DNA from: Patescibacteria group bacterium | GTDB lineage: Bacteria > Patescibacteriota > Microgenomatia > UBA1400 > PJMF01 | Assembly (NCBI GenBank): GCA_019454415.1 | Contig: JACFOI010000003.1 | Coordinates: 14,361-78,360, forward strand | Length of the DNA: 64,000 bases | Direction of reading: 5' to 3' | Shown: piece by piece, positions 10,547 to 59,600 of the stretch | Numbering within the stretch: position 1 is the first letter of the stretch | Layout of the letters: every line of letters starts with the position of its first letter | Program-made: the position numbers and the translations under genes | Notes under the pieces: model-generated | Told to the model about the DNA's origin: nothing | Databases searched by the model: none | What the model saw: the letters and a program-made list of their open reading frames with translations, nothing else

Positions 10547-10554
10547 GGGGAATC

Positions 10555-24306: not shown

Positions 24307-24370
24307 TTTTCTGCCTGACAACAATCCTATTCTTGGTCTCTAGTTGAACTGTGTGTACAATGGAAATCGA

Positions 24371-25595: not shown

Positions 25596-25597
25596 CT

Positions 25598-31591: not shown

Positions 31592-31603
31592 AATAGGTAT
31601 CGT

Positions 31604-34730: not shown

Positions 34731-35846
34731 ATGAAGATATTAGCGATTCTCGAACGCAATCCCGGAGGAGAGTACGCGGCTGCTCGAGCCCTCTTACATG
34801 CGTTAGAAGATAACGACTGTCAAATCGAGCTCGAAGAGCTATCTCCGCTTCAAACAACCGGTCTTTTTTCATACTTTGGCTGGATTCTTTTTTCGGTCTT
34901 CCGATCAGCGAAGTTGGCGGCGCACTACAAGGAAGGACGAGATGTTTATACGACTACCTATGTAGCTGCCCTTGGCATTTTACTACTGCGTCCCTTCACC
35001 CATCAAAAGCTGAGCTTTCATTATCACGGGAGTCGGATTCCGGCACCAGCTGGGAGAGACTGGCCGGCACTTCGTAAGTTGACACAGTCAGTTAAACACA
35101 CTGTGGTTATGCAGTTACACCGGATTGTCTTTTCAAAAACTGACCTACTGATAGTCCCCTCTGCCAAAATCCTTGAACAACTTCACACCGAGTTCCCCAC
35201 ACTAACCGATCGGGTGGCTCTTATTCCGAATGGTGTTGATACTCAATTTTTCCAACCGATCTCAAATGCAGAAAGACAGTCACTCCGTAAGCAGTACCGC
35301 ATTCCCAACGGCTCGTTTGTCTGTTTAGTCGTTTCTCGGGTCAACGCCGAAAAAGGCTTGATTGAATCCGTAGAGCTTGTCCGGGCCATCCAACGTTTCA
35401 GCAGGCATCGAGTTTTGGCGGTTTTTGCAGTTCCCAGTCAAGGGAACGATAGCCAGTATCTGCACCAGTTCTTGACGCATCTGCGTTCTTCGGAGGTTCC
35501 GCATCTGATTTTTGAAGATCATCAACAGCTGAATCAGCTTTACCAACTCAGTAACTGTGTTTTAAGTTGTTCACGACGGGAGGTATTTCCCCTTGTTCTG
35601 CTGGAAGCTGCTGCCTGTGGTACCCCATACTTTGCTGAGCCGAACGGCGCAATAGAGTATTATCTTCAACAGATCGATCCACAGCTAGTTCTGCCTCAGT
35701 CTCAGCAAGCTGCTGCCCGAAGAGTATTGGAAGAGACTCATCAAAATAAACTATCGGAGAAACTACGCGCTTTCGCTGTTTCTCACACTTGGCAGGCAAG
35801 TGCTGTCCGCCTTATGCAAAAACTGGAACAGCTCACAATCAGATGA
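34731..35846 (+). CDS. GT4-family glycosyltransferase
   Basis: GT-B length. VFPLVLLEAAACGTPYFAEPNGA motif. Confidence 0.7.
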   Translation: MKILAILERNPGGEYAAARALLHALEDNDCQIELEELSPLQTTGLFSYFGWILFSVFRSAKLAAHYKEGRDVYTTTYVAALGILLLRPFTHQKLSFHYHGSRIPAPAGRDWPALRKLTQSVKHTVVMQLHRIVFSKTDLLIVPSAKILEQLHTEFPTLTDRVALIPNGVDTQFFQPISNAERQSLRKQYRIPNGSFVCLVVSRVNAEKGLIESVELVRAIQRFSRHRVLAVFAVPSQGNDSQYLHQFLTHLRSSEVPHLIFEDHQQLNQLYQLSNCVLSCSRREVFPLVLLEAAACGTPYFAEPNGAIEYYLQQIDPQLVLPQSQQAAARRVLEETHQNKLSEKLRAFAVSHTWQASAVRLMQKLEQLTIR

Positions 35847-38782
35847 ACAAAAAGACACCGCAACGCTTTACGATCAAGAACATATTCAGAAAAAGATACC
35901 TTGTACTCGTTGTGTTGATCGCAGGTCTGATTGCGATCTTAAGTCTGGCTCAACCACCGGACTGGTGGCAGTTCTCTTTGACCGAACAAATCACCCAACA
36001 ACCAATCTTCAACAAAAAAAATATCTTACTTGCCACCAATCACGGCACAGTACTGGCAGTCCATCAGCGAACTGGCCAAGTAATCTGGGAACTCAAACAT
36101 GAAAAAGATATTGCTTCACAGCCATTCCTGAAAAATGACAAAGTCTATACATCCTATATCGACGGGACAGTCGTCGCAATAAACCCTGATACTGGGGAGT
36201 TCATTTGGCAGTATAAGCTGCCTGATTCTAAGCAAGTACATACTGGCCTACTTTACTCAGAAACTACACTTATTTTCGGCGATTCCGGGGGAATGGTACA
36301 CGGCTTGTCCCTGTCTGACGGTCGCGAAAAATGGTCCCTTCAAACTCCTAATCCGGACTCTGTGGACCAACTCCTGACTCCCAATGGCATAGTTTGGTTT
36401 GGCTCCGTCATTATGGATCGCTCCAAGCTGTATGTTATCCGCACTCATGGCTACATTGCCGAGATCAATCCTAATACTGGCAAACTGATTTGGGAGCAGA
36501 AGGTTCCTGGAACAGTCATTGGAGAGCCGTTGCTTACTCGTTCCAGTCTTTTTATTAGTACGGATCAAGTTCCGCTTGTTTCTCTCTCCCGAAGAAACGG
36601 AGAACTCTACACTGCACCGGAACCGCAAAACGCAACAACTATCTTTTGTCAGGTGAGTTATACCCAAAAAGGGATTCTGACTGATCTGTCAGAACGGGTG
36701 GATCTCAATATTCCCAGTATCCTTCCAGTCTATGAACAAGGACGTGGTGAGCAGATTATTCAGGTCGACAAATCCGGGAAGGTAGTTTCTTACGATCGGG
36801 CAACGCTGCGTCCCAAATGGCAAGTTGAGCTCAACTATGAACCTAAACGTTGTTTCTTTGACCAAGAGTACGGGTTATACCTTGGGTCTGCTACCGGCAC
36901 ACTTACGAAAGTCGACGTCAGAGAACAAAGAGTGCGCTGGCAGCAGCAACTGCCAAGTCGCCTTCTGTCTATTTTCTCAGTCTATAGACACAAGTTTGTC
37001 GAAAGGGAAAGTCAGAAAAAGTACTACTACACCAACTTTGTGCTTGTCAGTGACGACCAGGAAAACTTCTTCAGGATTAATCCTCAGACTGGTGAAGTGA
37101 TGTGGAGTTTCAAGATTGACGGCTCAATGTACGTGCCGCCTGTTCTCCATTTCGGACATCTGTTTATTGTGACAACTAATGGAGGACTGTATCGCCTCGA
37201 TCCCTTCACCGGAAAACCGGACCTTGGTCGACTTAGTCCGAAAGTCCAAGCCACACCCGTCAGCCAAACAGTCAAAGAGGGTGAAGTTTTTGAGCTGAAG
37301 GTGAAGGCTCCCTCTGATCGCTACAGTAATCCCTATACGGCAGTGGACTTAAGCGCGGAGTTTATTAACGTAGAAAACCGCAAGATCCAAGTACATGGAT
37401 TTTATTATGACAAGGGCGAGTGGCGAGTACGCTTTAATCCTCCCACTGATGGCAGGTGGCAGTGGACTCTTCATTGGAGAGATCCGTTTCAAAACAAGGA
37501 GTTGAGTGGCAGCTTTACGAGTGAAAGAAGCTATAGCGTACTTCAAGCAGACCCACAGACAGCAAAGTGGCTGACTAAAGACGGTAAAACAATTTTCCCG
37601 GTTGCGGGCATAAACGACTGCTTTGCCGACCTCAATCAAGACGGGTCACCCCTGAATGACTGGTTTACCCAGGATGGCTCTCTGAAAATCGCCACCACTT
37701 CGGGAGAGATTCCGCAAAAACTTAGCTTTAATTCACAAGTCGTCCCGATGGAATCTTACTTAGACACCTACCGGAACGGCTTTAACTTGTTCCGCCAGAA
37801 TGTGAGTAACTGTTCTCCACCGCTTTACTATGCAGAGAACTTTTTGTACTCCAAGTATCTTTCGCATGAAGGAAAACAGTTCGACGCACTCAGTCAGCAG
37901 CTTTTCCAAAGAGGGTACTCAGTTTGGTTCACCATGTTCAGCTTCTCTTTACCCTTTGATGGAGGTGTTCGGTATCCCGACGAACGATTTGCTTTGGAAA
38001 ATTACATTAAGTACGTAGTAGCGAGGTTTGGTGCTTATGTGGATGTTTGGGAAATCAGCAACGAGGCAGTTGCCAGTGATGAATATGTCCGGACTATTGC
38101 CCAGTTGATCGAAAAGAATGACCCATATAAAAGACTCATCAGTGTCAGCTGGGAAAAACCCCAACTGGACAGCATTACTCTAATCGCTCCACACTGGTAC
38201 CAGTCTGAGAATGACAACGAGTCTGACCTAGCGACGATCACTCAAATTAATAAGTTCAGCGAGTATAAAAAACCTGTTGTATTCGGTGAACATGGGAACC
38301 AGGAAAGAAACTGGGATCCGAGTTCGGCACATCGGATGAGGGTACGGACGTGGACAGCATTCTTTCATCAAGCAGGATTGGTATTTTGGAATCAGTCCAG
38401 CACCAAGGACTACTATAATCCTACTTTCCAGAACAGTAATATTTACCTGGGTGAAGAGGAACGGAACTACCAGTCAGTCTTTCTTCAGTTGACTCAGGGA
38501 CTACCTGTTAGTCTTGTTCCCCAGCCAGATCCTCCCCGAGGTAGTGGAATCCGTCCCTATGCACTGAAGAATGAGACGCTGCTTCTGTACTATATTTTCA
38601 ACTCGAATGTGGAGGAAAACTCCACTACGGTTATTACTAATACCCTCGCCGGGAGAGCAAAAGCAGAATGGTTTGACACGAAGACTGGTGAGCTTCTCCG
38701 TGCTGAAGAAGTCGATCCTGAAGCAACGTTAACCTCCCCGCCATTTACTCGTGATATCTTTGTCAAGCTCTCAGTGCTTTAG
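35843..38782 (+). CDS. membrane-anchored PQQ-like beta-propeller fused to GH5-like (TIM-barrel) glycoside hydrolase domain
   Basis: ATGA overlap start. N-terminal TM. Repeated GxVxAxxxxTGxxxW PQQ-type blades (residues roughly 80-480). C-terminal VWEISNEA (GH5 NEP-like acid/base) and FGEHG segments. Confidence 0.55.
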   Translation: MNKKTPQRFTIKNIFRKRYLVLVVLIAGLIAILSLAQPPDWWQFSLTEQITQQPIFNKKNILLATNHGTVLAVHQRTGQVIWELKHEKDIASQPFLKNDKVYTSYIDGTVVAINPDTGEFIWQYKLPDSKQVHTGLLYSETTLIFGDSGGMVHGLSLSDGREKWSLQTPNPDSVDQLLTPNGIVWFGSVIMDRSKLYVIRTHGYIAEINPNTGKLIWEQKVPGTVIGEPLLTRSSLFISTDQVPLVSLSRRNGELYTAPEPQNATTIFCQVSYTQKGILTDLSERVDLNIPSILPVYEQGRGEQIIQVDKSGKVVSYDRATLRPKWQVELNYEPKRCFFDQEYGLYLGSATGTLTKVDVREQRVRWQQQLPSRLLSIFSVYRHKFVERESQKKYYYTNFVLVSDDQENFFRINPQTGEVMWSFKIDGSMYVPPVLHFGHLFIVTTNGGLYRLDPFTGKPDLGRLSPKVQATPVSQTVKEGEVFELKVKAPSDRYSNPYTAVDLSAEFINVENRKIQVHGFYYDKGEWRVRFNPPTDGRWQWTLHWRDPFQNKELSGSFTSERSYSVLQADPQTAKWLTKDGKTIFPVAGINDCFADLNQDGSPLNDWFTQDGSLKIATTSGEIPQKLSFNSQVVPMESYLDTYRNGFNLFRQNVSNCSPPLYYAENFLYSKYLSHEGKQFDALSQQLFQRGYSVWFTMFSFSLPFDGGVRYPDERFALENYIKYVVARFGAYVDVWEISNEAVASDEYVRTIAQLIEKNDPYKRLISVSWEKPQLDSITLIAPHWYQSENDNESDLATITQINKFSEYKKPVVFGEHGNQERNWDPSSAHRMRVRTWTAFFHQAGLVFWNQSSTKDYYNPTFQNSNIYLGEEERNYQSVFLQLTQGLPVSLVPQPDPPRGSGIRPYALKNETLLLYYIFNSNVEENSTTVITNTLAGRAKAEWFDTKTGELLRAEEVDPEATLTSPPFTRDIFVKLSVL

Positions 38783-40014: not shown

Positions 40015-41811
40015 TTGTTCTCTTCTTTTGTTTTATATCGTTCTTATACCAAAATGCAACAAATAGTGACTGTAGCAAGAAGTGTTTTGAGCTGGGTTTG
40101 GAAAAATGGCCTCTTTCTGTCTCTGGCAGTAGCAGCTGCTGCACTGAAACTTTGGTTGCTTGATAGTCAGGATCTCACCTATCAGGGTTACAGCTTTCAT
40201 GATGAAATGCTGTTTGTTCGTCTGGCCCACAATATTATCGAAAGTGGGTGGCTGGGACCTTACGATAACTTAACCCTCGCTAAGGGGACTTTCCTTCCGC
40301 TTTTTTTAGTATTTAACTGGGCGCTCGGACTTCCCTTGTTGGTGACACAACAGCTATTGTACATTGCGGCTGTCACAGCAATCTCTTGGGCTATTCGCCC
40401 ACTGATTAAAAACCGTTTCTTATTACTCTTCTTGTTTATCATCTTACTGTTCCAACCGGCTTCCTTTGAGGGAGACTCTACTGCCAGAATTTTACGGTCT
40501 TCCATAGGAACCAGTTTGTCACTCTTTATCTTTGCCGGTTTTTTCAGACTTTGTCTGACTAAAATTCGTCAAGTGGAAGCAATTTGGTTGGGGAGCCTGA
40601 CTGGATTAGCTCTTGGACTGTTTTGGATAAATCGTGAAGATAACTTATGGATTCTGCCGGCTGTCGCCATTCTATTGGGTGGAAAGTGGGTGATAAGTTT
40701 TTTCCGCCATCAAATAAATAAACCTCTCTTTACTTTCAGTTCAGCCGTACTGTGCTGGGCAGTATTGCCTGTTTTTCTTGTTTCTCTCGTGAATGTGCAC
40801 TTCTATCAAATTTTCACAGTAACTGAGTTCCAGCACTTTGCATTCCCCGAAGCCTACGGGGCACTGTTGCGGGTTCGTCCGGCGCAGCGTTATCGGTATA
40901 TTCCGGTTACCCGCAGTACGCGTCAGATACTGTACAAGCTGAGTCCGGCTTTTAAGGAACTAGAAATTCCTTTGGAAGATCACTATGCCTCGGGATGGGC
41001 AGAAAATAGTGTTGACCTAACTGGTTTTAAGCCGCGGGAGAAACAGGTTGCCGGTGGATGGTGGATGTGGGCACTGCGGGATGCAGTCAATGCGGCCGGC
41101 TACGGTTCGTCCGGTGCTACGGCAGCTGCTTACTATATCCGGCTAACAAACGAGATAAATGCACTTTGTGACGACGGAACGCTGATCTGCACACCGCCTC
41201 ATAAAGTGATGACCCCTGTTCTTTCTGTCGATGATTACCGGCGGATCATTCCCGGCTTCTTTGAGTTGTGGATCGCGTATTTTTCGCGGCAACATCTCTC
41301 TGTTTACAACAGTCACTCTTCCGGAACAGAACTCGACGAGTATCTTTTCCGCAGTCTCACCCACGAGAAACTCTACCACAACGAAGACTATTATTTTGAT
41401 GATTGGAACCAGGCGACCCTGAAACAAAAACAGCTCTATGTCTTAGAGCAGCTGACGAGAAAGTACCAAACGTATGCTTTGCCCTTTGTTCTTCTCGGTA
41501 TTTTAAGCTATATCTACATTGCTATCAGGCGAGACCAGTATGCATGGGTGCTGCTTGCTATTCCCGCTTCAACTCTTTTTCTTAACTTAGTAGTAACCAT
41601 CATTCACTTCACCTCTTTTTGGGCATTCGGGAACGTCTACTTAAGTCCAATGTACCCATTATTTTTGATTTTCTCTTTCCTGAGTATTCTACGGGTACCC
41701 AGTCATTTACGCAGAGAGTGGGAGTTCTCACCGTTCAATAAAACCAAACCGCGGATCCTGAAGAAGGGTTTTAGTGATCTCGTCCGCGTAGATCCGGTGA
41801 GCCAGAACTGA
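40015..41811 (+). CDS. GT-C fold membrane glycosyltransferase (PMT_2/ArnT-like)
   Basis: Polytopic. First-loop acidic motif FHDEMLFVRLAHNI (DE motif of the GT39/GT83 family). Large C-terminal periplasmic domain. Confidence 0.55.
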   Translation: MFSSFVLYRSYTKMQQIVTVARSVLSWVWKNGLFLSLAVAAAALKLWLLDSQDLTYQGYSFHDEMLFVRLAHNIIESGWLGPYDNLTLAKGTFLPLFLVFNWALGLPLLVTQQLLYIAAVTAISWAIRPLIKNRFLLLFLFIILLFQPASFEGDSTARILRSSIGTSLSLFIFAGFFRLCLTKIRQVEAIWLGSLTGLALGLFWINREDNLWILPAVAILLGGKWVISFFRHQINKPLFTFSSAVLCWAVLPVFLVSLVNVHFYQIFTVTEFQHFAFPEAYGALLRVRPAQRYRYIPVTRSTRQILYKLSPAFKELEIPLEDHYASGWAENSVDLTGFKPREKQVAGGWWMWALRDAVNAAGYGSSGATAAAYYIRLTNEINALCDDGTLICTPPHKVMTPVLSVDDYRRIIPGFFELWIAYFSRQHLSVYNSHSSGTELDEYLFRSLTHEKLYHNEDYYFDDWNQATLKQKQLYVLEQLTRKYQTYALPFVLLGILSYIYIAIRRDQYAWVLLAIPASTLFLNLVVTIIHFTSFWAFGNVYLSPMYPLFLIFSFLSILRVPSHLRREWEFSPFNKTKPRILKKGFSDLVRVDPVSQN

Positions 41812-42690
41812 GGGATGAGTTTCACTCTTCGACACAAACATTTTTTGCTGCTCAGGAGTATTGTCGGGCGCAGGCATTTTGAAGGTGAGAACAGGAAAAC
41901 CAGCTTTTTTGTACACCTCAGTCATCGCCAAGCTGTCCGGATTCGAGGTTAAGAGTGAATCTAATGAAACGTACAACGCGTTTTTCTTGGGGAAGTCCGG
42001 AAGCAGCTTCTGCACAACGCACCAGTTTTTGGTATCTGCTTCTAGAGAGCGCTTGACTCGCTGCGGATATACTACTGTTACATCAATCTCTGCCCAATCT
42101 TCAGAGACATCCCAAACCGTTTCTCCCTCGCACTGCTCTAGCTCTTCTTCACCCTCAGGCCCGTACCAGGAGTATTTCTTCAGGAATGCATCGTTATGGA
42201 CGATGCCAAAGATTGAAAGATCGGCCTTCTGTCCGGTCCGCAAGAATGCTTTATACTTCCGCCACTGATCGACAATGTTATTTCCTTCAATCGCGAAAAC
42301 GAGTACTTTCGTAGGACGATACTCGTTTAGTTTCTTCTCCAAAAGATCGGCGAACCGTTCCTGCTCCCGGACACCCACACCCCAAACATACGAATCTCCA
42401 TAGAGGGCAATTGTGAACTCATTGGTGGCCTGTGTCCCTAAAATGCGAGGATCTTTCTGTTCATAGATAAACTCTTCCAGCGCGAGCATGTCCTGAGCCC
42501 GGGTACCATATCCTGCTAATCGGTGATAGGTACTATCCTCTACCACCCAGTAACCATGTGCCTCTGATTTTTGAAAAAAGAACTTATCAAAAAAGTAGTG
42601 TTCAGCCACCCAATAACAGGCTGCCAGGGTAAAACAGACACTGACAGACAACATACAAAAAAGCGTAAATAGTTTAAGCGATCTTGGCAT
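41728..42690 (-). CDS. SGNH/GDSL-family hydrolase (esterase/acyltransferase-like), N-terminally anchored
   Basis: GDSYVWGVG block I. Paralog of 58467-59567. Confidence 0.65.
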   Translation of the reverse strand: MPRSLKLFTLFCMLSVSVCFTLAACYWVAEHYFFDKFFFQKSEAHGYWVVEDSTYHRLAGYGTRAQDMLALEEFIYEQKDPRILGTQATNEFTIALYGDSYVWGVGVREQERFADLLEKKLNEYRPTKVLVFAIEGNNIVDQWRKYKAFLRTGQKADLSIFGIVHNDAFLKKYSWYGPEGEEELEQCEGETVWDVSEDWAEIDVTVVYPQRVKRSLEADTKNWCVVQKLLPDFPKKNALYVSLDSLLTSNPDSLAMTEVYKKAGFPVLTFKMPAPDNTPEQQKMFVSKSETHPSVLAHRIYADEITKTLLQDPRFGFIER

Positions 42691-42698
42691 AGATGATG

Positions 42699-43511
42699 TT
42701 ACAAACCTTCAATATCATCAATTGAAGGATAAATGTTGTAACGCTTTTGGTTAATAGGGATCTGGGAGCCAATATGAACTCTATAGTTATCGAACATAAC
42801 AACTTCGTTCTCATTAACCACACGTACTGTCAGATCGGCCCAGATCACGACATCCTTGTATATAGGATGTTTCCTGATGTGTAAGTTCCCGGAGCTATCC
42901 TGAGTAATTTGCGTTGCTGGACTCACCTCTACCTTAGTAATTTTGACTAGCTGCTTGCCCAGTGAGTTAGTAACTGTATCTCCCACGTGGATCTCCTTTG
43001 CCAAGGTGGGAGCAATACTCCCCAAAAAGGTTTTGACATGAATCACCTTCTCCGTTGCATTTACTTGAGCAGTCCCGGGGACATCAGTCACGATTCCGTC
43101 AAACGTAACATCATGAAGATTGAACCTCATGGGAGTTCCATACATTAAGTTTTTCCCGCGGGCAGAGTACAGTTTAGTCCGGGTGTCGTAGGTGGCCCGG
43201 AGCCGGATATCCAAATAAACAACTTTGTTCTCCGGAGTAATTGAGTAGCTTTCTACATTTACAATCTCGGCGATTGTCCGTCCTACCACGTCCCTTTCTA
43301 GATCACCGACATGGAATCGCCATGAGTAATCATTTCTGGGGGTGTCATGTGCAGTCAGTACTTCCTGATTCGTCACTTTAAAACGAATAGTAATGTAGGT
43401 GGACTTCCGATAGAAGAAAAAGAAGAAACCGACCAGCACTACTACTGCTGCACTGAAGATGAGTGTGTCTACCCAGTGTAGCTTGCGTAACTTTTTCAGA
43501 ATTTTTTTCAT
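42699..43511 (-). CDS. N-terminally anchored uncharacterized protein (paralog of 52371-53252)
   Basis: Basic N-terminus + TM (AAVVVLVGFFFFFYRK) + beta-rich domain. Clear paralogy to 52371-53252. Confidence 0.45.
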   Translation of the reverse strand: MKKILKKLRKLHWVDTLIFSAAVVVLVGFFFFFYRKSTYITIRFKVTNQEVLTAHDTPRNDYSWRFHVGDLERDVVGRTIAEIVNVESYSITPENKVVYLDIRLRATYDTRTKLYSARGKNLMYGTPMRFNLHDVTFDGIVTDVPGTAQVNATEKVIHVKTFLGSIAPTLAKEIHVGDTVTNSLGKQLVKITKVEVSPATQITQDSSGNLHIRKHPIYKDVVIWADLTVRVVNENEVVMFDNYRVHIGSQIPINQKRYNIYPSIDDIEGL

Positions 43512-45064
43512 GCACTCCTCTTTCCTGCAGACAGATAATACCAGAACGCACCAAAACCAAGAACTAAACCCAAAAATGGGAACTCAACAATACCAATATG
43601 CGGTAAGAGTGTCCAGAAGACGAGGGCGACAAGCAGTCCACTGAGAAAGGTCAGTCTGTAGAACTGGGGTTGGCCCCTTTGAGCTGGGTTGACGATGCAG
43701 TACCTGGCTAACCAGAACAACGGTAACAAAAAAATCAGCAGTCCGATCAGTCCGATCTCCATCCACAACTGGATATATGCCAGGTGAACGACTGCGGGAA
43801 AGACGGTCATCACCCCATCCGGGAAAAGCCGTTGAAGGACATACTCATTGGTGCCTATTCCGTATCCGATAAATGGGTTGGCAATGATCGCCTCTCTAGC
43901 TTCATTGACCATCCTGACCCGGATAGCTAAACCTGCACCTTGATAACCGGCATTCACACTCAACAAAATTCTGGGAATGATCCCAAATGCACTTAATGCA
44001 AATGCAACGACTCCATAGGCTAAGATTCTTCGGCGGCCGATTTTGCGTAACACTACCAAGATTCTTTTCTTATATACCACTCCGCAGAGGAAAAGTAGCA
44101 AGACTGCTCCGATCAATACTGATCGGCTCTGTGTAAGTAAAACCACAAACAGACCAGCCAGACCCGTTCCGATAAGTGGGACTGATTTTTTTTCGATACC
44201 ATAGGGCAAAATCACCGACGACAAGAGTGCCGAAACAAAGGCTAACTGATTGTGGAACATGAAGGTTCCCATCACTCGGAACACTGCATTGTTTTCATCT
44301 AGTCCTGTGGCAAAGCTGCCCGAGCTATTTGCCTCAAACGGAAGTCCGGCACTTCGTTGAAACCACAGCTGCAGCACGCTGACAAAAAACTGTGTGCAGA
44401 TCATAGCCGTGAGTGTCAGAACAAAAAATGAAAGAAACTTTGGGTACTTGACCAGCCCAAAGCAGATTCCCAGCGCCACAAAGTACATCATGCTGTACTG
44501 GAAAAGCCAAACTATCGACAGGGCTGGGAACGGAGAATACACCGTAATGCCATATAGGCAGTAACCAACAAAAAGCAACCATACCAATGTAATTGCACCC
44601 ATTACCACTAACAGTCGCTGGGGGATCTTCCGGAAGTTTTTCAGTAGATCTCTTATCAGAGCTGCAGCTGCCAGCACAAAAAAGAAGCTGGCCATGTGGA
44701 AAAAATAAGCAATGGAGTAACCCTCATAGTATTGAGGTTCCAAAATTGCATTCCCTCGAATTACTTCTACGTCATATCCCTTATTAGGGTGAACAAACTG
44801 CAAGGTAAATATATAGGTCAGAAAAAAGCCCAAGAAAACACTTTTCAGATTTCTTGATAGTAGAATTGCTACAATAAGATATAGTAGGAAAAACTGTCGA
44901 ATGCCGTCGATCAGACCAGTAGAAGACACAGCCACTGTGAGTGCGAACAGAACAGGAGTAAAAACGAATGGCCGATCCCAAATGCTATGTACTCGTTCGA
45001 GGCAGGAACGCCCTGCCGTACGTAGAACGCTGTTTGCGGTCAATACTTTGCCAAACATACTCAA
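43508..45064 (-). CDS. Wzy_C-like (O-antigen polymerase/ligase family) polytopic membrane protein
   Basis: About 12 TMs. Loop AVVHLAYIQLWMEIGLIG similar to the Wzy_C signature. 5' end overlaps divergent GT2, so the start is uncertain. Confidence 0.55.
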   Translation of the reverse strand: MSMFGKVLTANSVLRTAGRSCLERVHSIWDRPFVFTPVLFALTVAVSSTGLIDGIRQFFLLYLIVAILLSRNLKSVFLGFFLTYIFTLQFVHPNKGYDVEVIRGNAILEPQYYEGYSIAYFFHMASFFFVLAAAALIRDLLKNFRKIPQRLLVVMGAITLVWLLFVGYCLYGITVYSPFPALSIVWLFQYSMMYFVALGICFGLVKYPKFLSFFVLTLTAMICTQFFVSVLQLWFQRSAGLPFEANSSGSFATGLDENNAVFRVMGTFMFHNQLAFVSALLSSVILPYGIEKKSVPLIGTGLAGLFVVLLTQSRSVLIGAVLLLFLCGVVYKKRILVVLRKIGRRRILAYGVVAFALSAFGIIPRILLSVNAGYQGAGLAIRVRMVNEAREAIIANPFIGYGIGTNEYVLQRLFPDGVMTVFPAVVHLAYIQLWMEIGLIGLLIFLLPLFWLARYCIVNPAQRGQPQFYRLTFLSGLLVALVFWTLLPHIGIVEFPFLGLVLGFGAFWYYLSAGKRSA

Positions 45065-45786
45065 ATATAGTCATTCTATTTGTTGACGACGCCTCTGAAT
45101 ATAACAGAGAAACGAAAAAAAAGATCAACAAACAACTAGAAAGACATATTGTTGTATGGCGGAAAGAACGCTACTACTCGGTGCGCAACGCATACGAGAT
45201 GATTCACACTTACTGTGATGATCCGGAGGGGATCGTCATTAACTTAGATGCTGATGATTGGTTTTCAACCCCCAGATCGGTGGAGAGGCTGGTACGGTTT
45301 TACAAAAAAGAAAAATGTTTGTTCAGCTACGGCGACTGTTATGTGTGGTCGGGCCAAGATAGTGGCCATACTGAGTGGTCCGACGAAAACTTTGCCAAGC
45401 TCAACTTTTCTTCGTTGCCACTCGCTTCCAAATACATGGAAGCATGCAACATTTCCTATACTAAAAAAGTGAATACCCGTCGGAACTTTCGAGATATCCC
45501 ATTTGTGGTACTGCATCCCCGAAGTTGGAAAGTAAAAGCATTTCGCCTAATTCCTAAGACAGCATTTCAGCGGCCAGACGGAACCTGGTTACACTTTTGT
45601 GAAGACCAAGCAATCTTTTTTTCCCTGTTCGAGATGTTCCCAGAGAGATATGCCGTCTGCCCTCTTCCACTGTCGGTCTACAACCAAGCAAACCCGGCGG
45701 CTGACATTAAGCGTTATCGCCTAGAAACTCTTCGTGATGAAATAGAGATCCGGCGGAAACCCAAGTATGCAACGATTTCGCTATAA
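44968..45786 (+). CDS. GT2-family glycosyltransferase
   Basis: CYVLVRGRNALPYVERCLRSILCQTYSNIVILFVDDASEYN (GT-A N-terminus with DD motif). Confidence 0.6.
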   Translation: MADPKCYVLVRGRNALPYVERCLRSILCQTYSNIVILFVDDASEYNRETKKKINKQLERHIVVWRKERYYSVRNAYEMIHTYCDDPEGIVINLDADDWFSTPRSVERLVRFYKKEKCLFSYGDCYVWSGQDSGHTEWSDENFAKLNFSSLPLASKYMEACNISYTKKVNTRRNFRDIPFVVLHPRSWKVKAFRLIPKTAFQRPDGTWLHFCEDQAIFFSLFEMFPERYAVCPLPLSVYNQANPAADIKRYRLETLRDEIEIRRKPKYATISL

Positions 45787-47347
45787 CATTCACTGCTCCA
45801 AGCTTCTCAGTCTGCCAGTACTGGGCAACCTACTTTATCGGATGCAGCTTCTGATGGTGAAAGCAGGTCTCTCCACACAGTATTGGATCTCCCGAAAGGA
45901 TGTTCCCCTGCGCGGACAGCTTCTGACCGAGATCGAAAAACGGGCAGTGATCATGTTTTGTTCGGCGTGGCAGCTCGGTCGCCAATTGGAAAATTTACAT
46001 GGAAAGTATGTCTTTGATTACACAGGACCTCATCCCAAACACTTGTCTCTGACTGAGCTTTATAACCTGGAATGGGCGTTAATTCTGGCCCAAAGCGTTA
46101 CTTCCCAGAGCATCAAGAAACTGGGAAACCTTCTCCCCCAAAGCTATCCTTTTTGGAGGCCGTATATTCTTTCAGTCCATCAGCAGCTGGACGTTCAGTG
46201 TGACTTTGTCCAACAGACCCTCAATGAACTTTTAGCCCAGGGTAATACAGTCATTCTGTTTAGCCATGTTCAACAGCCTGATACAGTGAAACAAGAACTT
46301 CGTAAGCATCGTCGTCTGATCTATTTCTCGAGTGTCTGTCCGTTGCGTACCTCTCTCTTGCCATTTCGACTGCAGAAGGATGTCCAGTCAGTGTGGGAGA
46401 GTATTGTTCGTCGAACCTTGTATCAGTATGCGCCACCTCAGCATCATCCGGTCTTGTGGTGTTTTGACCCTGATGACGCGAATATCTTACACTTTTGCCC
46501 TCCCCAGACCACGATTATTTTTGATTGTGTTGACTACTACACCAGTACCGACCAAGAGTTAAATAAGAGGGTCACTCGTGATCAACGCCGCTTGATAGAC
46601 GCCGCTGACCTGATGTTTGTGAACTCCAGAACTTTAAAGAAGCTCCACTCTAAACAACGAATGGATAACTTGTTGGTTCCTCAAGGCTTTGACCAACAAA
46701 CTTTTTTTGTGAATAGCAAAGGCAGGCGTTCAAAAACGTCGATTCGTTTCTTCCAGAAACTTAATCGCACCAAAACAAAGTATCGAGCAGTTGTGTCCTT
46801 CGCCGGGGCACTTTCCTATCGAGTCGACTATCCGATGCTCATAGATCTGATCAAACACTGTCCCAAGTATTTGTTTTGTTTACCGGAGACTGAACTTTCT
46901 TGGCCGACTGAAGATCAAGCTGTAGCTTGGCAGCAGCAGCTTCAGCACCTTAGGAAGCTACCGAATGTACTCTGGTTTCCCCGGCTGCAACGCAGTGAAG
47001 TGCGGGCACTTTTGGAAAAAACTACGGTCGGGTTGATCCCTTATGACACTTCCTTTGAGTTAAATCGTTACTGTTTCCCGATGAAGTTCTTCGAGTATCT
47101 GAGCATGGGCTTGCCTGTCCTTTCTACACCTATTCACGAGTTAAAGTACTATCCTCAGTTTGTCTCACTTGGAAAGAATAGTCTCGAACTACGCAAAAAG
47201 TTACACGTTTTAGTAAGAAAGCGAGTGACAAGTCAAACAAAAGAGGCCATGAAACAGTTGTGTTTAGAACACACATGGCAGAAAAAGATTGACGCAATTC
47301 TCTCTGCTATTGATCTCTATCAACGGCGGTACCACCGATTTGTGTAG
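45767..47347 (+). CDS. GT-B glycosyltransferase (GT4-like C-terminal domain), paralog of 49616-50872
   Basis: YCFPMKFFEYLSMGLPVLSTPIHELKY aligns with CCFPMKIMEYFFAQRPVVSTPIPSLLDY in the paralog. Confidence 0.55.
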   Translation: MQRFRYNIHCSKLLSLPVLGNLLYRMQLLMVKAGLSTQYWISRKDVPLRGQLLTEIEKRAVIMFCSAWQLGRQLENLHGKYVFDYTGPHPKHLSLTELYNLEWALILAQSVTSQSIKKLGNLLPQSYPFWRPYILSVHQQLDVQCDFVQQTLNELLAQGNTVILFSHVQQPDTVKQELRKHRRLIYFSSVCPLRTSLLPFRLQKDVQSVWESIVRRTLYQYAPPQHHPVLWCFDPDDANILHFCPPQTTIIFDCVDYYTSTDQELNKRVTRDQRRLIDAADLMFVNSRTLKKLHSKQRMDNLLVPQGFDQQTFFVNSKGRRSKTSIRFFQKLNRTKTKYRAVVSFAGALSYRVDYPMLIDLIKHCPKYLFCLPETELSWPTEDQAVAWQQQLQHLRKLPNVLWFPRLQRSEVRALLEKTTVGLIPYDTSFELNRYCFPMKFFEYLSMGLPVLSTPIHELKYYPQFVSLGKNSLELRKKLHVLVRKRVTSQTKEAMKQLCLEHTWQKKIDAILSAIDLYQRRYHRFV

Positions 47348-49616
47348 CATATTGAGAGAGTTCCATAGCCGACTGTGGGTCTCTTTCTTGATAAAGCTGG
47401 GCTTGTCGGGAGAGCTGTTCCGCGAGTGGACCCTTCAGCTTGTAATTGAATGCATACTCCGGACCCATCTTTTCTTCCCATGCCAGGATAACCTTGCTAT
47501 ATGCAATCAAAACCTGGGCTTCTTGTTTTGTAGTTGAGGAGCTTTCCTGCCAGGAGGTAAGAATAAGCTCAGCGACTTCCCAGTCATACTCACCCATTCT
47601 TAGGATGTTATTCATCAACTGCTCAGCAATTTCCGGTTGTCCTTGAGCAAGTGCTTGCTGTAGTTGGAGAGATTCACCTGCATACAACGGCCGGGCATAT
47701 CGAAACACAAAATCAGTATCGAGTATGTTAAGCAGGGGGAGAGTTTCAGAAATGGGAAGTTGCGCTATCTGCTCTAGGACAGGTAAAGAAGGATATAGAA
47801 ACTGCTCGGGCTGGAGCGTATAGCTTAGCTCATAGAAATGTAGCGCTTGAATGGGGTTCTTATCCAGTAGTTGATTGGCCTTCTCTATTCCCAAAGCTGC
47901 AATGACACCATTTTCCGGATAAGAGTAGTTATCCAATAAGTTCCGGTTACTTCTTTCGATCCATGTTGTGAGCGCTTGCTCGGCCAGGTCGTTATCCTCC
48001 CCTTTCAGAGCAGCATCCACGTACTGGAAGTATCGGAGCTGATTATGGGGATCAAGCGGAATAGCAGTTTGTAGGTACTTTGCCTTTTGCGTGGAAGGAA
48101 TATTAGCTGCTTGCGCCGCGGAGTCCCAAATCCGCGGATGGTGTCCATATAAAGTGAATAGGAAGTTTTGTGTTGAAGTAGAGATAAGCTCCGGCTGGGA
48201 TAAACTGTTCTCTACCCGCCAGTATGCAAAAGGGAAAAGGGAGAGTGCTGTATCGTACTGTTTCTTTTGCCAGAAAAACACTGACGTCAGATAAAGTCCG
48301 GCCCAAAGCAGAGTACCTACTGCCAGCGTCGCAAAGTAAACCTTCACTCCCATGCCGGAAGCAGGAAGGAAGAATTGTGTGTGCTTGCGAGTAATCCAGG
48401 TACGAAACCGACGGACAAAAGCTCCCAAACTGCTTTCTTGCTTGACCTCACTGATCCAGCAAGCGGTGACAATCAAGAAAAGTAACCAAAGGCCTATCAA
48501 ATGCAGACTAAAGTTGAAAAAAGACTCCAGAATTACTGCCAATACAGCAAGGGCAAAACAGAACGACAGCCTCTGGTGTGGGAATCGCAGTTGATAGAGT
48601 CCCTTCCGAATGATCCAGAAGAAAAAAACCAAGAAGAGCAGCCCTCCCAACAGTCCGTACTCAGTGAATGCTTGGAGGAGCTCATTGTGAGCGTAACCAG
48701 AATACAGTCCCTCTCTGCTTTGGAGTCGAAGAGAAACTAAAGAGAACGTTCCGCCACCCCATCCAGTCAGCGGACGCTGGATCAAAGCTTGGAGAGCCTG
48801 TCTCCAGTACTCAGGTCTCAGTTCCTGATGAAGAGGTTTACAAAGCTGCGCTTGAAAAACCGGGTACGGACAGTCACCACTAGTCGTCATCACTAACGAC
48901 CAAGCAAGAGAGACAGCAAGTAATACTCCGAAAGAAAGAAAAAGTAACCCTGCCCCTAACTTCTTCAACTTTTTATCGGCAGTGGTAAACCACAGCACTC
49001 CTACCTCGGTAACTCCCAAGACAATACCCAAGCGGGCAAAGGTCAGTAACAAGCTGCCAAATACAAAGACTATTCCCAGCCGAGCAAGCCAGCTTTTCTT
49101 CTCTTCTGCTGTCCACCAGAGCAAAGGTAAGGCTAGTAAGAATAACACTGCTGCCTGGTTGTGGCCGTACATCGCTGTCAATAGCGTGGTACTGGGAAGA
49201 TATGATGAAAGCTGAGGAACTGCTGTATAGAGGAAAGTCAGCGCACCGAGGCACACAGCCAAGGTACTAACACCTAGGGCCATGGCTGACGTAGTCAACC
49301 ACCTTGGGTTTCTGAGAAGCGTAAAGACGAACACCAGATAAGAGAGCGCATAGAAGATAGCAGCGTTGACTGTTAAAGGGATGCTTATTGTGGTCAAGAG
49401 TGACAGGAATGTGATCCCGACCAAAGCTCCGAACAGGTAGATCGGTAAAATAAACTGTGAGACTCTTTCAAACTTAACTTCCCGAATAAAAAATAGCTCT
49501 AACAGCGCCAATAATCCAAAAAGTGGAATGCCAAGTGTTGTTTCCCCAAAAATTAAGAGCAAGAACAGCAAACAAAAAAAAATCAAAAAGTAGATGGCTT
49601 GCGAGCCTGAATACAT
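47307..49616 (-). CDS. Wzy_C (O-antigen ligase/PglL-like) membrane protein fused to C-terminal TPR-like domain (paralog of 31604-33832)
   Basis: Signature YAHNELLQAFTEYGLLGG. C-terminal roughly 330 aa helical repeats. Confidence 0.75.
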   Translation of the reverse strand: MYSGSQAIYFLIFFCLLFLLLIFGETTLGIPLFGLLALLELFFIREVKFERVSQFILPIYLFGALVGITFLSLLTTISIPLTVNAAIFYALSYLVFVFTLLRNPRWLTTSAMALGVSTLAVCLGALTFLYTAVPQLSSYLPSTTLLTAMYGHNQAAVLFLLALPLLWWTAEEKKSWLARLGIVFVFGSLLLTFARLGIVLGVTEVGVLWFTTADKKLKKLGAGLLFLSFGVLLAVSLAWSLVMTTSGDCPYPVFQAQLCKPLHQELRPEYWRQALQALIQRPLTGWGGGTFSLVSLRLQSREGLYSGYAHNELLQAFTEYGLLGGLLFLVFFFWIIRKGLYQLRFPHQRLSFCFALAVLAVILESFFNFSLHLIGLWLLFLIVTACWISEVKQESSLGAFVRRFRTWITRKHTQFFLPASGMGVKVYFATLAVGTLLWAGLYLTSVFFWQKKQYDTALSLFPFAYWRVENSLSQPELISTSTQNFLFTLYGHHPRIWDSAAQAANIPSTQKAKYLQTAIPLDPHNQLRYFQYVDAALKGEDNDLAEQALTTWIERSNRNLLDNYSYPENGVIAALGIEKANQLLDKNPIQALHFYELSYTLQPEQFLYPSLPVLEQIAQLPISETLPLLNILDTDFVFRYARPLYAGESLQLQQALAQGQPEIAEQLMNNILRMGEYDWEVAELILTSWQESSSTTKQEAQVLIAYSKVILAWEEKMGPEYAFNYKLKGPLAEQLSRQAQLYQERDPQSAMELSQYATQIGGTAVDRDQ

Positions 49617-50872
49617 CAGGTAGATGGTATCATCTCGCTGAGATACTCATCAACGGAATCCAGCTTGCGCTTCCATGTTTGATTGAGGGCTATGTTCCGA
49701 AGCTTTTGTTGTTGATCTTTCGACCATTTTACTTGGAGGGCCTTTTGAATAGCCCTGGAAAACTGTCGAGATGTATTACCAAAGAAAACAAACTCTTTAT
49801 AGTCTAGTAAGGAAGGGATGGGCGTTGAGACTACTGGTCTTTGTGCAAAAAAGTACTCCATGATCTTCATCGGGAAGCAGCACACATTAAACTCCCACTG
49901 TAAGTCATAAGGAACGATCAAGACATCGCATTCTTTCATCATCGGAAGCAGCTGATTTCTTTTCAGTAATTGAATCCAAGTCACATTTGTTTTTCTCAGT
50001 AGGTGATCAAGTTTTTTTTCGCTGGCCTCACTCTGGCCTACCGATTGATCTTTTCCTCTAGGCCCCACAAATAAAAAATTCCACTCAGGATGCTGCTGCG
50101 TGACTCGCAGTAACATCTCTACATCCAAACGTTGGTTCACACCGCCGAAAAAGCCGATCAACGGACGTGTTTCTTTTCGTAGTTTTTGCAACTTCCTCCG
50201 AACTGCCAAAGGAGGCTGGGTGGGGGTTTTGAATCCCTGGAGATCAAAGCCCTGAGGGACTTGCCGCGGAGCGATCTGTGCAAGTGGCTCTATCCGCGAC
50301 AAAACGGGCCGCGTCAGAACTGTAATGCTACGGGCAGCTTGGATTAACAGCCGCCGCTGCTGGTCAAGCTTCTGCCTTGATTGAACATCCATTGTCGTAT
50401 GCCAATCCACACAGTCAAAGTGGAGATGCCAGCTTTTAAAGAAAGGCAATACGTCAATATCCTGGGGATGAAAAATCCATAGTATCCGCTGAGCGTCTGG
50501 TTGTTGCCTCCCGATAAGTAAGGAAAAGAGCAAAAGATTAAGCTGAAGATTAAGATATTTAGAAAATGAGAACCTTTGGAAAGGCAAAAACTGGAATACA
50601 CCTAAATAGATTGGCTGTCTGAGAGCCTTTAGTTGATCTGCAGTTCGGAGCGGAAGGAAACTTCGCGCTTGTGTAACTCCATTTAACCAATGCTTCCATC
50701 CGGTTTTTCCTCGCCAGCTTTCCCCAAGAGCCAGTATAATGACCACATTTTGAGCAGCTAGCTCGCCTGCTGTTCGAAAAACAAAGTCGCAAATGCCTTC
50801 CGGGCGATCATACGTCGGAATACAAACTAACTTATGGCTCAAAAATCGTCGGTGTTGCAAGCTACTTTTCAT
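49616..50872 (-). CDS. GT-B glycosyltransferase paralog
   Basis: See 45767-47347. Shares 1 nt with the upstream gene. Confidence 0.55.
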   Translation of the reverse strand: MKSSLQHRRFLSHKLVCIPTYDRPEGICDFVFRTAGELAAQNVVIILALGESWRGKTGWKHWLNGVTQARSFLPLRTADQLKALRQPIYLGVFQFLPFQRFSFSKYLNLQLNLLLFSLLIGRQQPDAQRILWIFHPQDIDVLPFFKSWHLHFDCVDWHTTMDVQSRQKLDQQRRLLIQAARSITVLTRPVLSRIEPLAQIAPRQVPQGFDLQGFKTPTQPPLAVRRKLQKLRKETRPLIGFFGGVNQRLDVEMLLRVTQQHPEWNFLFVGPRGKDQSVGQSEASEKKLDHLLRKTNVTWIQLLKRNQLLPMMKECDVLIVPYDLQWEFNVCCFPMKIMEYFFAQRPVVSTPIPSLLDYKEFVFFGNTSRQFSRAIQKALQVKWSKDQQQKLRNIALNQTWKRKLDSVDEYLSEMIPST

Positions 50873-52387: not shown

Positions 52388-53252
52388 GCCGCTGCAGACT
52401 ATTTGGAAAAGAGTGCGTTCCCTCGGTTGGATTGACCTTATCGGCGTATGTATTTTTCTGGGCATACTGAGTGTCGCTTTCTTTTTCTTTTTACGAAAAG
52501 CCGACTATGCGTACATCACTCTTCGTGTCTCCCAATCCGATAACATGAATCCCTACAGTGATCAGGCACCTGTTTGGTTTATTGAAAAGATTCAGCCCGG
52601 CTTAAAAGAGACTGACGGCCTGGGCAGGGACAACGTCGTGATTGAAAAAGTTCATCGTTTCAAATCTTCTGACTTGAATCAGGATTTTTACGTCGACCTC
52701 AAAGTCAGATCTGTCTACAACTCCAGAACTAAACAGTTTACCTACAATGGATCCACCTTGCTGATCGGCAGCTACCAGTCTTTTAAACTTCAGGGAATTC
52801 AGCTTTCCGGAGTGATCGTCGATGTTCGCGAGCAAGATACACCGCGTGAAGAAAAAACCTTCCTGGTGGAAGGGTACGTGAATCCGGCCTACAACGACGA
52901 ACAGTATAGTGTGGCCAACACAGTGGTGGACGGTATCAAGAACTATCTGGCCGACACATTGTTTACCGGTCTCAAGACAGTCGACGTAGATGGTCAGGCC
53001 ACCGCCGAGATTATTAGTATTCAAAAGCGTCCAGCTAGACGTCAGTTTGTTTCCGGATCGTCCTTTGTGAGCGTTCCCGATCCTGAGAGACAACGAGTTG
53101 AGATGACTTTAAGAATCAAGGGGGTCAAAATTAATGATGCCTATTACTACAAGAACGAAGCACCCATTGTCGTAAACTCAACGATCTATTTGACGTTCCC
53201 TCAAAGTAATATCAACTTTACCCTTACTCATTTTGAGGAAGAAAAAAAGTAG
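52371..53252 (+). CDS. N-terminally anchored uncharacterized protein (paralog of 42699-43511)
   Basis: Same architecture and alignable blocks (YITLRV/YITIRF, SRTKQFTY/TRTKLYSA). Confidence 0.45.
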   Translation: MNLKSKPLQTIWKRVRSLGWIDLIGVCIFLGILSVAFFFFLRKADYAYITLRVSQSDNMNPYSDQAPVWFIEKIQPGLKETDGLGRDNVVIEKVHRFKSSDLNQDFYVDLKVRSVYNSRTKQFTYNGSTLLIGSYQSFKLQGIQLSGVIVDVREQDTPREEKTFLVEGYVNPAYNDEQYSVANTVVDGIKNYLADTLFTGLKTVDVDGQATAEIISIQKRPARRQFVSGSSFVSVPDPERQRVEMTLRIKGVKINDAYYYKNEAPIVVNSTIYLTFPQSNINFTLTHFEEEKK

Positions 53253-59567: not shown

Positions 59568-59600
59568 TTTTTGTTCTTCATTAAAAATTGGAACAGCTCT

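Follow-up and report, generated by a model that had tools for sequence, protein, structure and literature searches.

The stretch of DNA analysed here (the window) comprises 64 kb from the genome of an uncultured member of the Patescibacteria (CPR), and ORFs in it were scanned against Pfam. On the minus strand it encodes a polytopic glycan polymerase/ligase of the Wzy_C family (WzyA, 43508..45064), followed by a 270-aa DUF4330 protein (DufA, 42699..43511) and a 320-aa SGNH/GDSL hydrolase with an N-terminal anchor (SGNH-A, 41728..42690). Divergent from WzyA, on the plus strand, lie the gene of a GT2 glycosyltransferase (44968..45786; Glycos_transf_2, 6e-13) and, with its start overlapping the GT2 stop, that of a 526-aa GT1-like protein (45767..47347; Glyco_trans_1_2, 7e-6), of which only the C-terminal GT-B half is recognisable. 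Paralogs of the three minus-strand proteins are found further along: WzyB (50834..52387, 517 aa) and the B-type DUF4330 protein DufB (52371..53252, 293 aa) are neighbours on the plus strand, while SGNH-B (58467..59567, minus strand) belongs to a separate operon. The window also contains two longer Wzy_C genes, one on the plus strand (31481..33832, 783 aa; Wzy_C, 8e-17) and one on the minus strand (47307..49616, 769 aa; Wzy_C, 1e-11), the latter extended at its C-terminus by a soluble part of about 300 aa. A 997-aa protein with Pfam matches to a PQQ-like beta-propeller, DUF5060 and an apiosidase-like family is encoded at 35789..38782 on the plus strand, and two polytopic proteins (40015-41811 and 53268-54881) were assigned to no family.

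A preliminary description of this DNA had listed six of these ORFs, and an ORF check of the window recovered all of them at the coordinates given above. Reading the junctions from the sequence also bore out the overlaps it reported: The WzyA and DufA genes share an ATGA, with AGAGGAG (a Shine-Dalgarno sequence) ahead, and the WzyB and DufB genes overlap by 17 nt, with AAGGAG ahead. The hydrolase gene had been described as coupled by an ATGA overlap as well. There, the sequence has an 8-nt gap between DufA and SGNH-A instead. The longest ORF for WzyA has 518 aa, and the annotation of identical public contigs starts the gene at 44935 (475 aa). The shorter form is likely the true one, and with this start the gene does not overlap the divergent GT2 gene.

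The anchored protein was initially thought to represent an unrecognised family. It is in fact a member of a named one: DufA matched Pfam DUF4330 (PF14221) with 53.9 bits (E 3.2e-14; gathering score 27.6) and is the NCBI entry MBW7944009.1, already labelled 'DUF4330 family protein'. DufB scored below the Pfam threshold (14.6 bits, E 0.037) and matched the family profile (A1) at 1.3e-78. Grouped at 50% identity, the family forms about 1150 clusters; a literature search found no paper mentioning it, nor any recorded function or linkage to Wzy_C. DufA starts with a positively charged, lysine/arginine-rich segment, which implies an N-in orientation for this bitopic protein, and continues with one TM helix (residues 13-33) that ends in a conserved FFFFYR motif. 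Two small beta-barrel modules follow in tandem (37-143 and 152-268) and are homologous to each other (hhalign probability 95%, E 2.9e-8). The AF2 models of DufA and DufB (pLDDT 84.8 and 84.5) agree, and DufB likewise has a TM segment (20-40) followed by two beta modules. The Pfam model corresponds to a single module of about 170 aa, which the CPR proteins carry as a tandem duplicate, and family members differ in how many modules follow the single TM segment (1, 2, 3 or about 4-5). Overall, the end of the TM helix and module 1 were the best-conserved parts. Apart from R35 and Y115, most residues invariant across the family are Gly or Pro, and no conserved catalytic-looking or sugar-binding set of residues was identified in DUF4330. 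The loop 47-58 of DufA is conserved yet has a pLDDT of 48, which fits a segment that becomes ordered only within a complex. The structural neighbours of the modules were generic barrels only (Z <= 6.5), no significant PDB relative of DufA or DufB was found, and no characterised family showed confident homology to DUF4330.

WzyA and WzyB scored well above the Wzy_C gathering score of 31.7 (58.6 bits, 7.9e-16 and 66.7 bits, 2.5e-18, respectively), and each has more than 10 hydrophobic segments (about 12 in WzyA). Both belong to one subfamily of Wzy_C that is partnered by DUF4330, WzyA in its A clade and WzyB in its B clade, where it clusters with the Wzy_C partners of two other loci (L042 and L043). 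Four arginines (R220, R271, R322 and R339) are invariant in this subfamily and H384 is nearly so. These residues fall in the region aligning to 7TPG, the WaaL of C. metallidurans, which was the sole PDB relative in a profile search, at a borderline E of 0.058. Wzy_C (PF04932) takes in ligases and O-oligosaccharyltransferases besides polymerases, and the partnered enzymes may be any of the three. Altogether, the island holds four Wzy_C genes, not two. The 783-aa and 769-aa proteins form a subfamily of their own (118-119 bits between them) and gave no cross-match to WzyA or WzyB, neither gene has a DUF4330 partner, and no DUF4330-like domain was found in the 769-aa protein. With half of the window's Wzy_C genes standing alone, the converse expectation that every Wzy_C gene has a partner fails.

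The preliminary description spoke of a repeated cassette. The three paralog relationships behind this term stood up: DufA and DufB share 26% identity (BLASTP, E 2e-19), WzyA and WzyB 24% (E 2e-12), and SGNH-A and SGNH-B 36% (E 1e-57). A search of 30-64 kb of the window for a repeat at the DNA level found none, so the "repeat" is better understood as an ancient gene-pair duplication. The Wzy_C and DUF4330 genes were duplicated together, and the resulting A and B types have remained matched since.

We then asked how widely the pair is kept. Among the 36 bacterial loci that were informative and non-redundant, 33 have Wzy_C directly upstream of DUF4330 in the same orientation; allowing a single gene in between raises the count to 35. 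The junction is kept even among members only 22-26% identical, mostly as an overlap (4 to 74 nt), and the linked Wzy_C always comes from the one subfamily. The pair is conserved in Roizman-, Woese-, Microgenomates- and Paceibacterota-type genomes. In two loci (L027 and L028), a 950-aa gene, homologous to that of the 997-aa PQQ-propeller protein, sits between Wzy_C and DUF4330; the propeller protein is a recurrent companion. One distant bacterial locus (L007) carries DUF4330 without an adjacent Wzy_C gene, as do two haloarchaeal plasmids. Surface-glycan gene clusters are nevertheless the setting of the wider family, haloarchaeal members included. On the Haloplanus plasmid, a PQQ-propeller gene is found near DUF4330, and a haloarchaeal DUF4330 gene also lies near a 'surface glycoprotein' gene. 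Given these loci, strict one-to-one coupling is not universal. The claim that the anchored protein always follows a Wzy_C gene holds for the 33 bacterial loci and breaks at L007 and on the two plasmids. Homology to a known family or a lack of conserved linkage had been named as the outcomes that would speak against the proposed partnership; with no confident homology of that kind and with the linkage conserved, neither applies.

The hydrolase is not a fixed part of this arrangement. The conserved core has the order GT1-like<-GT2<-|->Wzy_C->DUF4330, with a GT2 ortholog divergent from Wzy_C in about 20 loci and GT1-like orthologs adjoining GT2 in most loci. An SGNH gene comes after DUF4330 in close relatives only, those sharing 55% identity or more (L004/5, L009 and L017). 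SGNH-A is therefore a lineage-restricted accessory outside the conserved unit, and the steady companions of the pair are the divergent GT2 and the GT1-like gene rather than the hydrolase first assigned to the cassette. Both hydrolases scored under the Lipase_GDSL_2 gathering score of 32.9 (SGNH-A 27.5 bits, 5e-6; SGNH-B 24.8 bits, 4e-5), and the alignment of paralogs and orthologs showed conserved blocks I (GDS), II (G), III (N) and V (H). With these blocks, its anchor and its place in a glycan island, SGNH-A resembles PatB, Ape1, the OatA C-domain and AlgX/J. Unlike the PatB, OatA and AlgX systems, it has no AT3 or MBOAT acyl-donor partner: No match to MBOAT or AT3 (Acyl_transf_3) was found among the scanned window ORFs, in which the polytopic proteins at 40015-41811 and 53268-54881 carry no family assignment. 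The closest solved relatives in a profile search against PDB were generic small SGNH esterases (E 2e-4). No specific support was found for the earlier PatB/Ape/OatA-type assignment. SGNH-B lies in an operon of its own, with 4-nt overlaps (carbamoyltransferase -> SGNH-B -> PIG-L deacetylase -> WecG/TagA).

Adjacency can also arise when genes are merely co-expressed in a glycan operon, in which case DUF4330 would have an independent envelope role, e.g. as a spacer of the wall or S-layer or as a sensor. The loci with DUF4330 and no adjacent Wzy_C are in keeping with this, as is the general retention of gene order in CPR glycan islands; in one relative (L006) the island is syntenic throughout. The A and B clades of the partnered Wzy_C mirror the A and B clades of DUF4330. 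In a mirror-tree comparison of 30 pairs, Wzy_C and DUF4330 correlated with r = 0.86, and the partial correlation with the neighbouring GT2 controlled was 0.56, a value reached in 0 of 2000 permutations. The reverse control gave 0.21. Part of the adjacency and of the mirror-tree correlation is due to shared operon history. Nevertheless, the specificity for one subfamily, the matched clades and the correlation beyond the GT2 control argue against simple co-expression, and so does the Wzy_C->DUF4330 junction, which persists with its overlaps down to 22% identity while other island genes come and go. We regard an independent role as improbable; clade matching and mirror tree favour a co-evolving pair, as the suggested link to the adjacent Wzy_C genes had anticipated.

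The reading that we favour, with modest confidence and from sequence comparisons, is that DUF4330 is a dedicated extracytoplasmic partner subunit of one subfamily of Wzy_C polymerases/ligases acting on lipid-linked glycans. Co-translated with Wzy_C, it would work on the outside of the cytoplasmic membrane in these bacteria, which are monoderm. The GT2 and GT1-like enzymes may make the lipid-linked repeat unit, which the pair would then polymerise or ligate. The conserved end of the TM helix with its juxtamembrane motif (FFFFYR, R35 being conserved throughout the family) and the loop 47-58 could dock on Wzy_C in the outer leaflet, placing the beta-barrel modules above the extracytoplasmic active site, where they might bind the growing glycan or the acceptor glycan, or guide it. 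The anchored SGNH enzyme, in those lineages that have it, may afterwards edit ester decorations of the product. The partnered Wzy_C resembles WaaL in its Wzy_C domain and polytopic topology; WaaL has a lipid A-core acceptor, which CPR bacteria lack. To our knowledge, no characterised WaaL, Wzy or PglL has a DUF4330-type partner, and a literature search for one found none.

The best-known helper of this kind is the Wzz co-polymerase, which acts with Wzy, e.g. in the WzzE-WzyE complex (PMC12004945, PMC10030265). Wzz/PCP-1 proteins oligomerise and modulate how long the Wzy product becomes. Like them, DUF4330 is a small membrane-anchored protein whose extracytoplasmic domain is large, and it is linked to a Wzy-type enzyme of a Wzx/Wzy-like glycan pathway. 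The defining feature of Wzz/PCP-1 is two TM segments at the protein termini (PMC12004945), whereas DufA and DufB have a single N-terminal hydrophobic segment and neither an alpha-helical coiled-coil domain nor a Wzz Pfam domain. Of the fold expected for the anchored protein, the membrane anchor and beta-rich part were thus confirmed, as one TM segment and two beta-barrels, and a Wzz/PCP identity was rejected. No Wzz/PCP or LCP match was found among the scanned window ORFs, leaving the Wzz niche of the island open within that set. DUF4330 might then be a non-homologous stand-in for the missing co-polymerase. We infer from this context that it would serve as a co-polymerase or chain-length factor, as a guide, or in binding the acceptor.

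Alternatively, DUF4330 might oligomerise to form a stacked ring comparable to those of MlaD, PqiB and LetB. Such a conduit would carry the growing polymer away from Wzy_C and across the wall zone, its reach depending on how many tandem modules are present, a possibility that we consider doubtful. No sequence or Pfam relationship of DUF4330 to MCE proteins (MlaD, PqiB, LetB/YebT, Mce1) was found, and the MCE fold is no closer to it than EF-Tu domain II/III or GcvT barrels are. Its neighbours are Wzy_C, GT2, GT1-like and SGNH genes rather than the MlaE/ABC partner genes of MCE proteins, which shift lipids in diderm envelopes.

Least probable in our view is that DUF4330 is itself the acceptor, an anchored glycoprotein modified by a PglL/TfpO-like O-oligosaccharyltransferase, as with tfpO beside pilA: Such enzymes occur in the Wzy_C family, adjacency and co-evolution fit an enzyme and its substrate equally well, the exposed conserved loop with T47 has a low pLDDT, and the haloarchaeal neighbour annotated as a surface glycoprotein points the same way, but the alignment shows neither a low-complexity sequon region rich in Ser/Thr/Ala/Pro nor conserved Ser/Thr at the C-terminus. 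Conservation is strongest where the TM helix ends and in the juxtamembrane part, not at an exposed acceptor site, and a 270-aa anchored protein for which no other function is recognisable would be unusual as the sole substrate conserved across CPR classes.

The partner-subunit reading also has a bolder form, which we hold to be unlikely at present. DUF4330 would represent an unrecognised class of glycan-assembly accessory, non-homologous to Wzz: a TM-anchored stack of 1-5 small beta-barrels. By binding to one specific Wzy_C subfamily, this stack would control the length, direction or hand-off of the polymer in CPR bacteria, which are monoderm, and perhaps also in archaea, and the count of its modules would serve as a physical ruler.

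Among the routes by which bacteria make surface polysaccharides, Wzy-dependent glycan assembly is the most widespread, and the only Wzy partners that are well understood are the Wzz/PCP proteins. DUF4330, a family of many clusters and no literature that we found, gains a specific functional context as the obligate-looking partner of one Wzy_C subfamily, within a four-gene module shared by several CPR lineages whose envelopes are almost unknown. It is likely a new accessory subunit for building cell-surface glycans. If the association is not physical, the annotation is still corrected and the genes of a conserved unit are told apart from accessories. If it is physical, it would represent a second, structurally unrelated way of aiding Wzy-type enzymes and a handle on surface-glycan building in ultrasmall episymbiotic bacteria.

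All open reading frames named in the preliminary description were recovered at the same positions. WzyA (43508-45064, minus strand) and WzyB (50834-52387, plus strand) match Pfam Wzy_C with 58.6 and 66.7 bits, respectively, and each is followed by the gene of an anchored protein, DufA (42699-43511, minus strand) or DufB (52371-53252, plus strand). SGNH-A (41728-42690, minus strand) and SGNH-B (58467-59567, minus strand) both give a weak match to Pfam Lipase_GDSL_2. The junction sequences bear out part of the ATGA coupling proposed for Wzy_C, anchored protein and SGNH hydrolase: the WzyA/DufA overlap is there, preceded by AGAGGAG, whereas an 8-nt gap separates DufA from SGNH-A. The second pair does overlap by 17 nt, as had been reported, with AAGGAG ahead of the WzyB/DufB overlap. 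In identical public contigs, gene callers place the WzyA start 43 codons later (475 aa, window position 44935), and with this start WzyA no longer runs into the divergent GT2 gene. The genes had also been called a repeated cassette. They are indeed paralogous, with 26% identity for DufA/DufB (E 2e-19), 24% for WzyA/WzyB (E 2e-12) and 36% for SGNH-A and the second SGNH paralog, SGNH-B (E 1e-57), but no direct repeat was found at the DNA level between 30 and 64 kb of the window, and a recent duplication or a mobile cassette was rejected on this ground. The paralogy of all three pairs is genuine, and old.

The anchored family, thought to be unrecognised, already carries a name. DufA scores 53.9 bits against Pfam DUF4330 (PF14221; threshold 27.6), and the identical NCBI protein MBW7944009.1 is labelled 'DUF4330 family protein [Patescibacteria group bacterium]'. 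DufB alone stays below the Pfam threshold (E 0.037) and matches the family profile at 1.3e-78. A literature search found no paper mentioning DUF4330 or PF14221, and searches of NCBIfam and of PDB sequences with the anchored protein gave no matches. An exhaustive HMMER search returned 1150 clusters at 50% identity with E<=1e-3 and 680 with E<=1e-10; nearly all of the 150 best-scoring clusters listed are 260-310 aa long. Word-indexed profile searches for non-CPR members gave matches confined to the CPR subfamily.

Loci were gathered by exact-protein look-ups, a scan of species-representative genomes and a metagenome scan, and annotated with a local ORF/phmmer script, giving 36 informative non-redundant bacterial loci, the window's two pairs included. 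They are labelled Roizmanbacteria, Woesebacteria, Microgenomates, Paceibacterota or unclassified Patescibacteria. Wzy_C lies directly upstream of DUF4330 on the same strand in 33 of the 36 loci, including those of two proteins (P0206 and P0215) only 22-26% identical to DufA. Most junctions are start/stop overlaps of 4 to 74 nt, and one locus has a gap of 262 nt. The claim that the anchored protein always follows a Wzy_C gene fails in two haloarchaeal plasmids and in the bacterial locus L007. In L027 and L028 a gene of ~950 aa (PQQ-propeller/DUF5060/apiosidase-like), homologous to window 35789-38782, separates Wzy_C from DUF4330; in L007, a very distant member, Wzy_C is two genes away on the opposite strand. 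In most loci the pair comes with orthologs of the divergent GT2 (44968-45786) and GT1-like (45767-47347) genes, and the conserved unit is therefore a four-gene core, with GT2 followed by GT1-like in one direction and Wzy_C followed by DUF4330 in the other. The typical module of GT1-like, GT2, Wzy_C and DUF4330 genes also occurs on contigs of MAGs labelled Limisphaerales and Pseudomonadales (L010, L011, L012); these contigs probably come from CPR genomes and were mis-binned.

The coupling concerns one Wzy_C subfamily. The window holds four Wzy_C genes, an unusual number for one island. WzyA, WzyB and the partners in five other loci (L001, L008, L042, L043, L047) hit each other in an all-against-all phmmer comparison and split into A and B clades, in step with the typing of their DUF4330 partners as A or B. 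The long Wzy_C proteins, of 783 aa (31481-33832, plus strand) and 769 aa (47307-49616, minus strand, with a faint TPR match), each with a soluble C-terminal extension of ~300 aa, form a separate subfamily with a 671-aa protein of L008. These three have no cross-hits to the partnered set, and neither a DUF4330 partner nor a DUF4330-like domain was found for them. Locus L006 has both A and B pairs, and in two further cases an A-type and a B-type protein share the length of their longest contig, which suggests co-location. The duplication therefore involved the whole pair and preceded the divergence of these lineages.

DUF4330 and Wzy_C distances showed a mirror-tree correlation of 0.86 (n=30). 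When the neighbouring GT2 served to control for phylogeny, the partial correlation was 0.56 (n=16), a value reached by 0 of 2000 permutations, and that between DUF4330 and GT2 given Wzy_C was 0.21. Together with the matched clades, these values support the co-evolution that had been proposed as a check, and are supportive rather than proof because operon mates have a common history. Set beside the partial correlation and the subfamily specificity, the alternative that the linkage is mere operonic co-expression and the role of DUF4330 independent seems rather unlikely.

The AlphaFold2 models of DufA (pLDDT 84.8, pTM 0.71) and DufB (pLDDT 84.5, pTM 0.65) are both confident and agree with each other: a short basic N-terminus and one TM helix precede two beta-rich modules. 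Six Lys/Arg residues stand before the helix and two after it, predicting an N-in/C-out topology by the positive-inside rule. The two modules are mutually homologous (hhalign 95%, E 2.9e-8), and in other family members the single helix precedes one module, three, or roughly four to five. The long proteins P0210 and P0176, considered as Rosetta-stone fusions to Wzy_C, are multi-module DUF4330 proteins. Foldseek against the PDB gave no match below E 0.027. The module is therefore a small closed beta-barrel that has no specific relative among characterised proteins. Wzz carries a TM segment at each terminus, and its coiled-coil helical domain assembles into octamers (PMC12004945). A single TM helix and an ectodomain made up of beta structure set DUF4330 apart, and the Wzz/PCP-like fold sought in the models was rejected on these grounds. 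Conservation peaks at the outer TM-helix end (F30, F32, F33, Y34, R35) and in module 1, with module 2 less conserved; R35, G69, G77, Y115, G125 and P216 are kept even in a broad family alignment. The loop 47-58 is conserved (T47, V51, L52, P58), yet its pLDDT is 48. An MCE-like oligomeric conduit, another alternative, is considered unlikely.

Within the partnered Wzy_C subfamily R220, R271, R322 and R339 are invariant and H384 nearly so. Single-sequence PDB searches with WzyA and WzyB gave no matches, and the sole PDB match of the subfamily profile was the WaaL structure 7TPG (E 0.058); the partnered enzymes may be polymerases, ligases or oligosaccharyltransferases. In a literature search on Patescibacteria and O-antigen ligase, no title or abstract looked relevant. 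A PglL-like enzyme with DUF4330 as its dedicated glycoprotein substrate seems quite improbable.

DUF4330 genes (367 aa, annotated) also occur on two haloarchaeal plasmids in surface-glycan neighbourhoods. The Haloplanus gene lies near glmS and genes for a sugar nucleotidyltransferase, a sugar transferase and a PQQ-propeller protein; the neighbours in Salinigranum are a surface glycoprotein, an LTA-synthase-family gene and a GT-A gene, with an O-antigen-ligase-family gene 5.4 kb away. Neither plasmid has a Wzy-sized ORF directly upstream of DUF4330. The glycan context is therefore family-wide, and tight Wzy_C coupling is seen, in the sampled loci, only in bacterial two-module (CPR) members.

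The SGNH hydrolases are accessories. SGNH genes downstream of DUF4330 are confined to the window and its close relatives L004/5, L009 and L017. SGNH-B belongs to a different operon, a minus-strand series of carbamoyltransferase (NodU/CmcH-like), SGNH-B, PIG-L deacetylase and WecG/TagA genes with 4-nt overlaps (56972-61442). The carbamoyltransferase-SGNH adjacency recurs in the distant L007, a hint that sugars bearing carbamoyl or acyl groups may be the targets of the SGNH-B clade. Both SGNH proteins retain the GDS, Gly, Asn and His blocks. Among solved structures they come closest to generic small esterases (E 2e-4), with no specific subfamily matched. The suggested PatB/OatA-type assignment is unsupported, because the scanned window ORFs contain no AT3 or MBOAT partner.

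The surrounding glycan island (about 22-64 kb) encodes a MurJ-type flippase, a Bac_transf initiating transferase, many GT2/GT4 enzymes, WecG/TagA, a PIG-L deacetylase, a carbamoyltransferase, methyltransferases and an epimerase; its scanned ORFs include no Wzz/PCP or LCP gene. At its upstream edge the MurJ-type gene is directly followed by PilN- and PilO-like type IV pilus assembly genes (22615-26104, plus strand), and further upstream a GH18 chitinase-like gene lies between genes for class A PBPs of 822 and 830 aa (8078-14375, plus strand). The PQQ-like beta-propeller/DUF5060/apiosidase-like protein (35789-38782, plus strand, ~950-1000 aa) has homologs in L027 (3152-6004), L028 (3104-5968) and L044 (2035-4407). 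Given its presence in the island, the L027/L028 inserts and the PQQ-propeller near the Haloplanus DUF4330, it may be a second conserved companion. A 598-aa polytopic protein (40015-41811, plus strand; ~11 hydrophobic segments, the first loop bearing an HDE motif) matches nothing in Pfam or NCBIfam; its gene runs convergently into SGNH-A, sharing 84 nt at the 3' end. It is conserved in L004, L009 and L017 and adjoins a 399-aa GT2 (38779-39978, minus strand); the two look like a GtrB-like GT2 and its partner, a GT-C-type glycosyltransferase of no known class. A 537-aa protein with ~12-13 hydrophobic segments (53268-54881, minus strand), conserved in L006 and L046, is encoded convergently with DufB. 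It matches no family apart from a PMT_2 hint at E 4, and may be either a flippase or a GT-C enzyme that has escaped recognition. The 769-aa Wzy_C gene is bracketed by an inverted repeat of 41 nt with 78% complementarity (47057-47097 and 49854-49894). The arms of the repeat lie within opposite-strand GT1-type genes (45767-47347 and 49616-50872), and it probably reflects a protein motif common to two paralogous GT genes, not a mobile-element end; FPMK..EY was read in the 418-aa GT1-type protein.

The preliminary observation is thus confirmed and its interpretation upheld in part. The analysis shows the topology and architecture of DUF4330, its coupling to Wzy_C, the specificity for one subfamily and the co-evolution signal. 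On the best-supported reading, which we regard as somewhat probable, DUF4330 serves a single Wzy_C subfamily as a dedicated extracytoplasmic subunit. We infer that it would dock onto Wzy_C via the conserved TM end and juxtamembrane region and guide the glycan, its tandem beta-barrels held over the outer face of the enzyme. It would then be a functional analogue of the Wzz/PCP co-polymerases, not a family member. The host organisms are difficult for experimental work; the association itself is clean, conserved and unpublished, and renders an orphan DUF testable. It would represent a Wzy-type assembly system whose partner family is both novel and uncharacterised.
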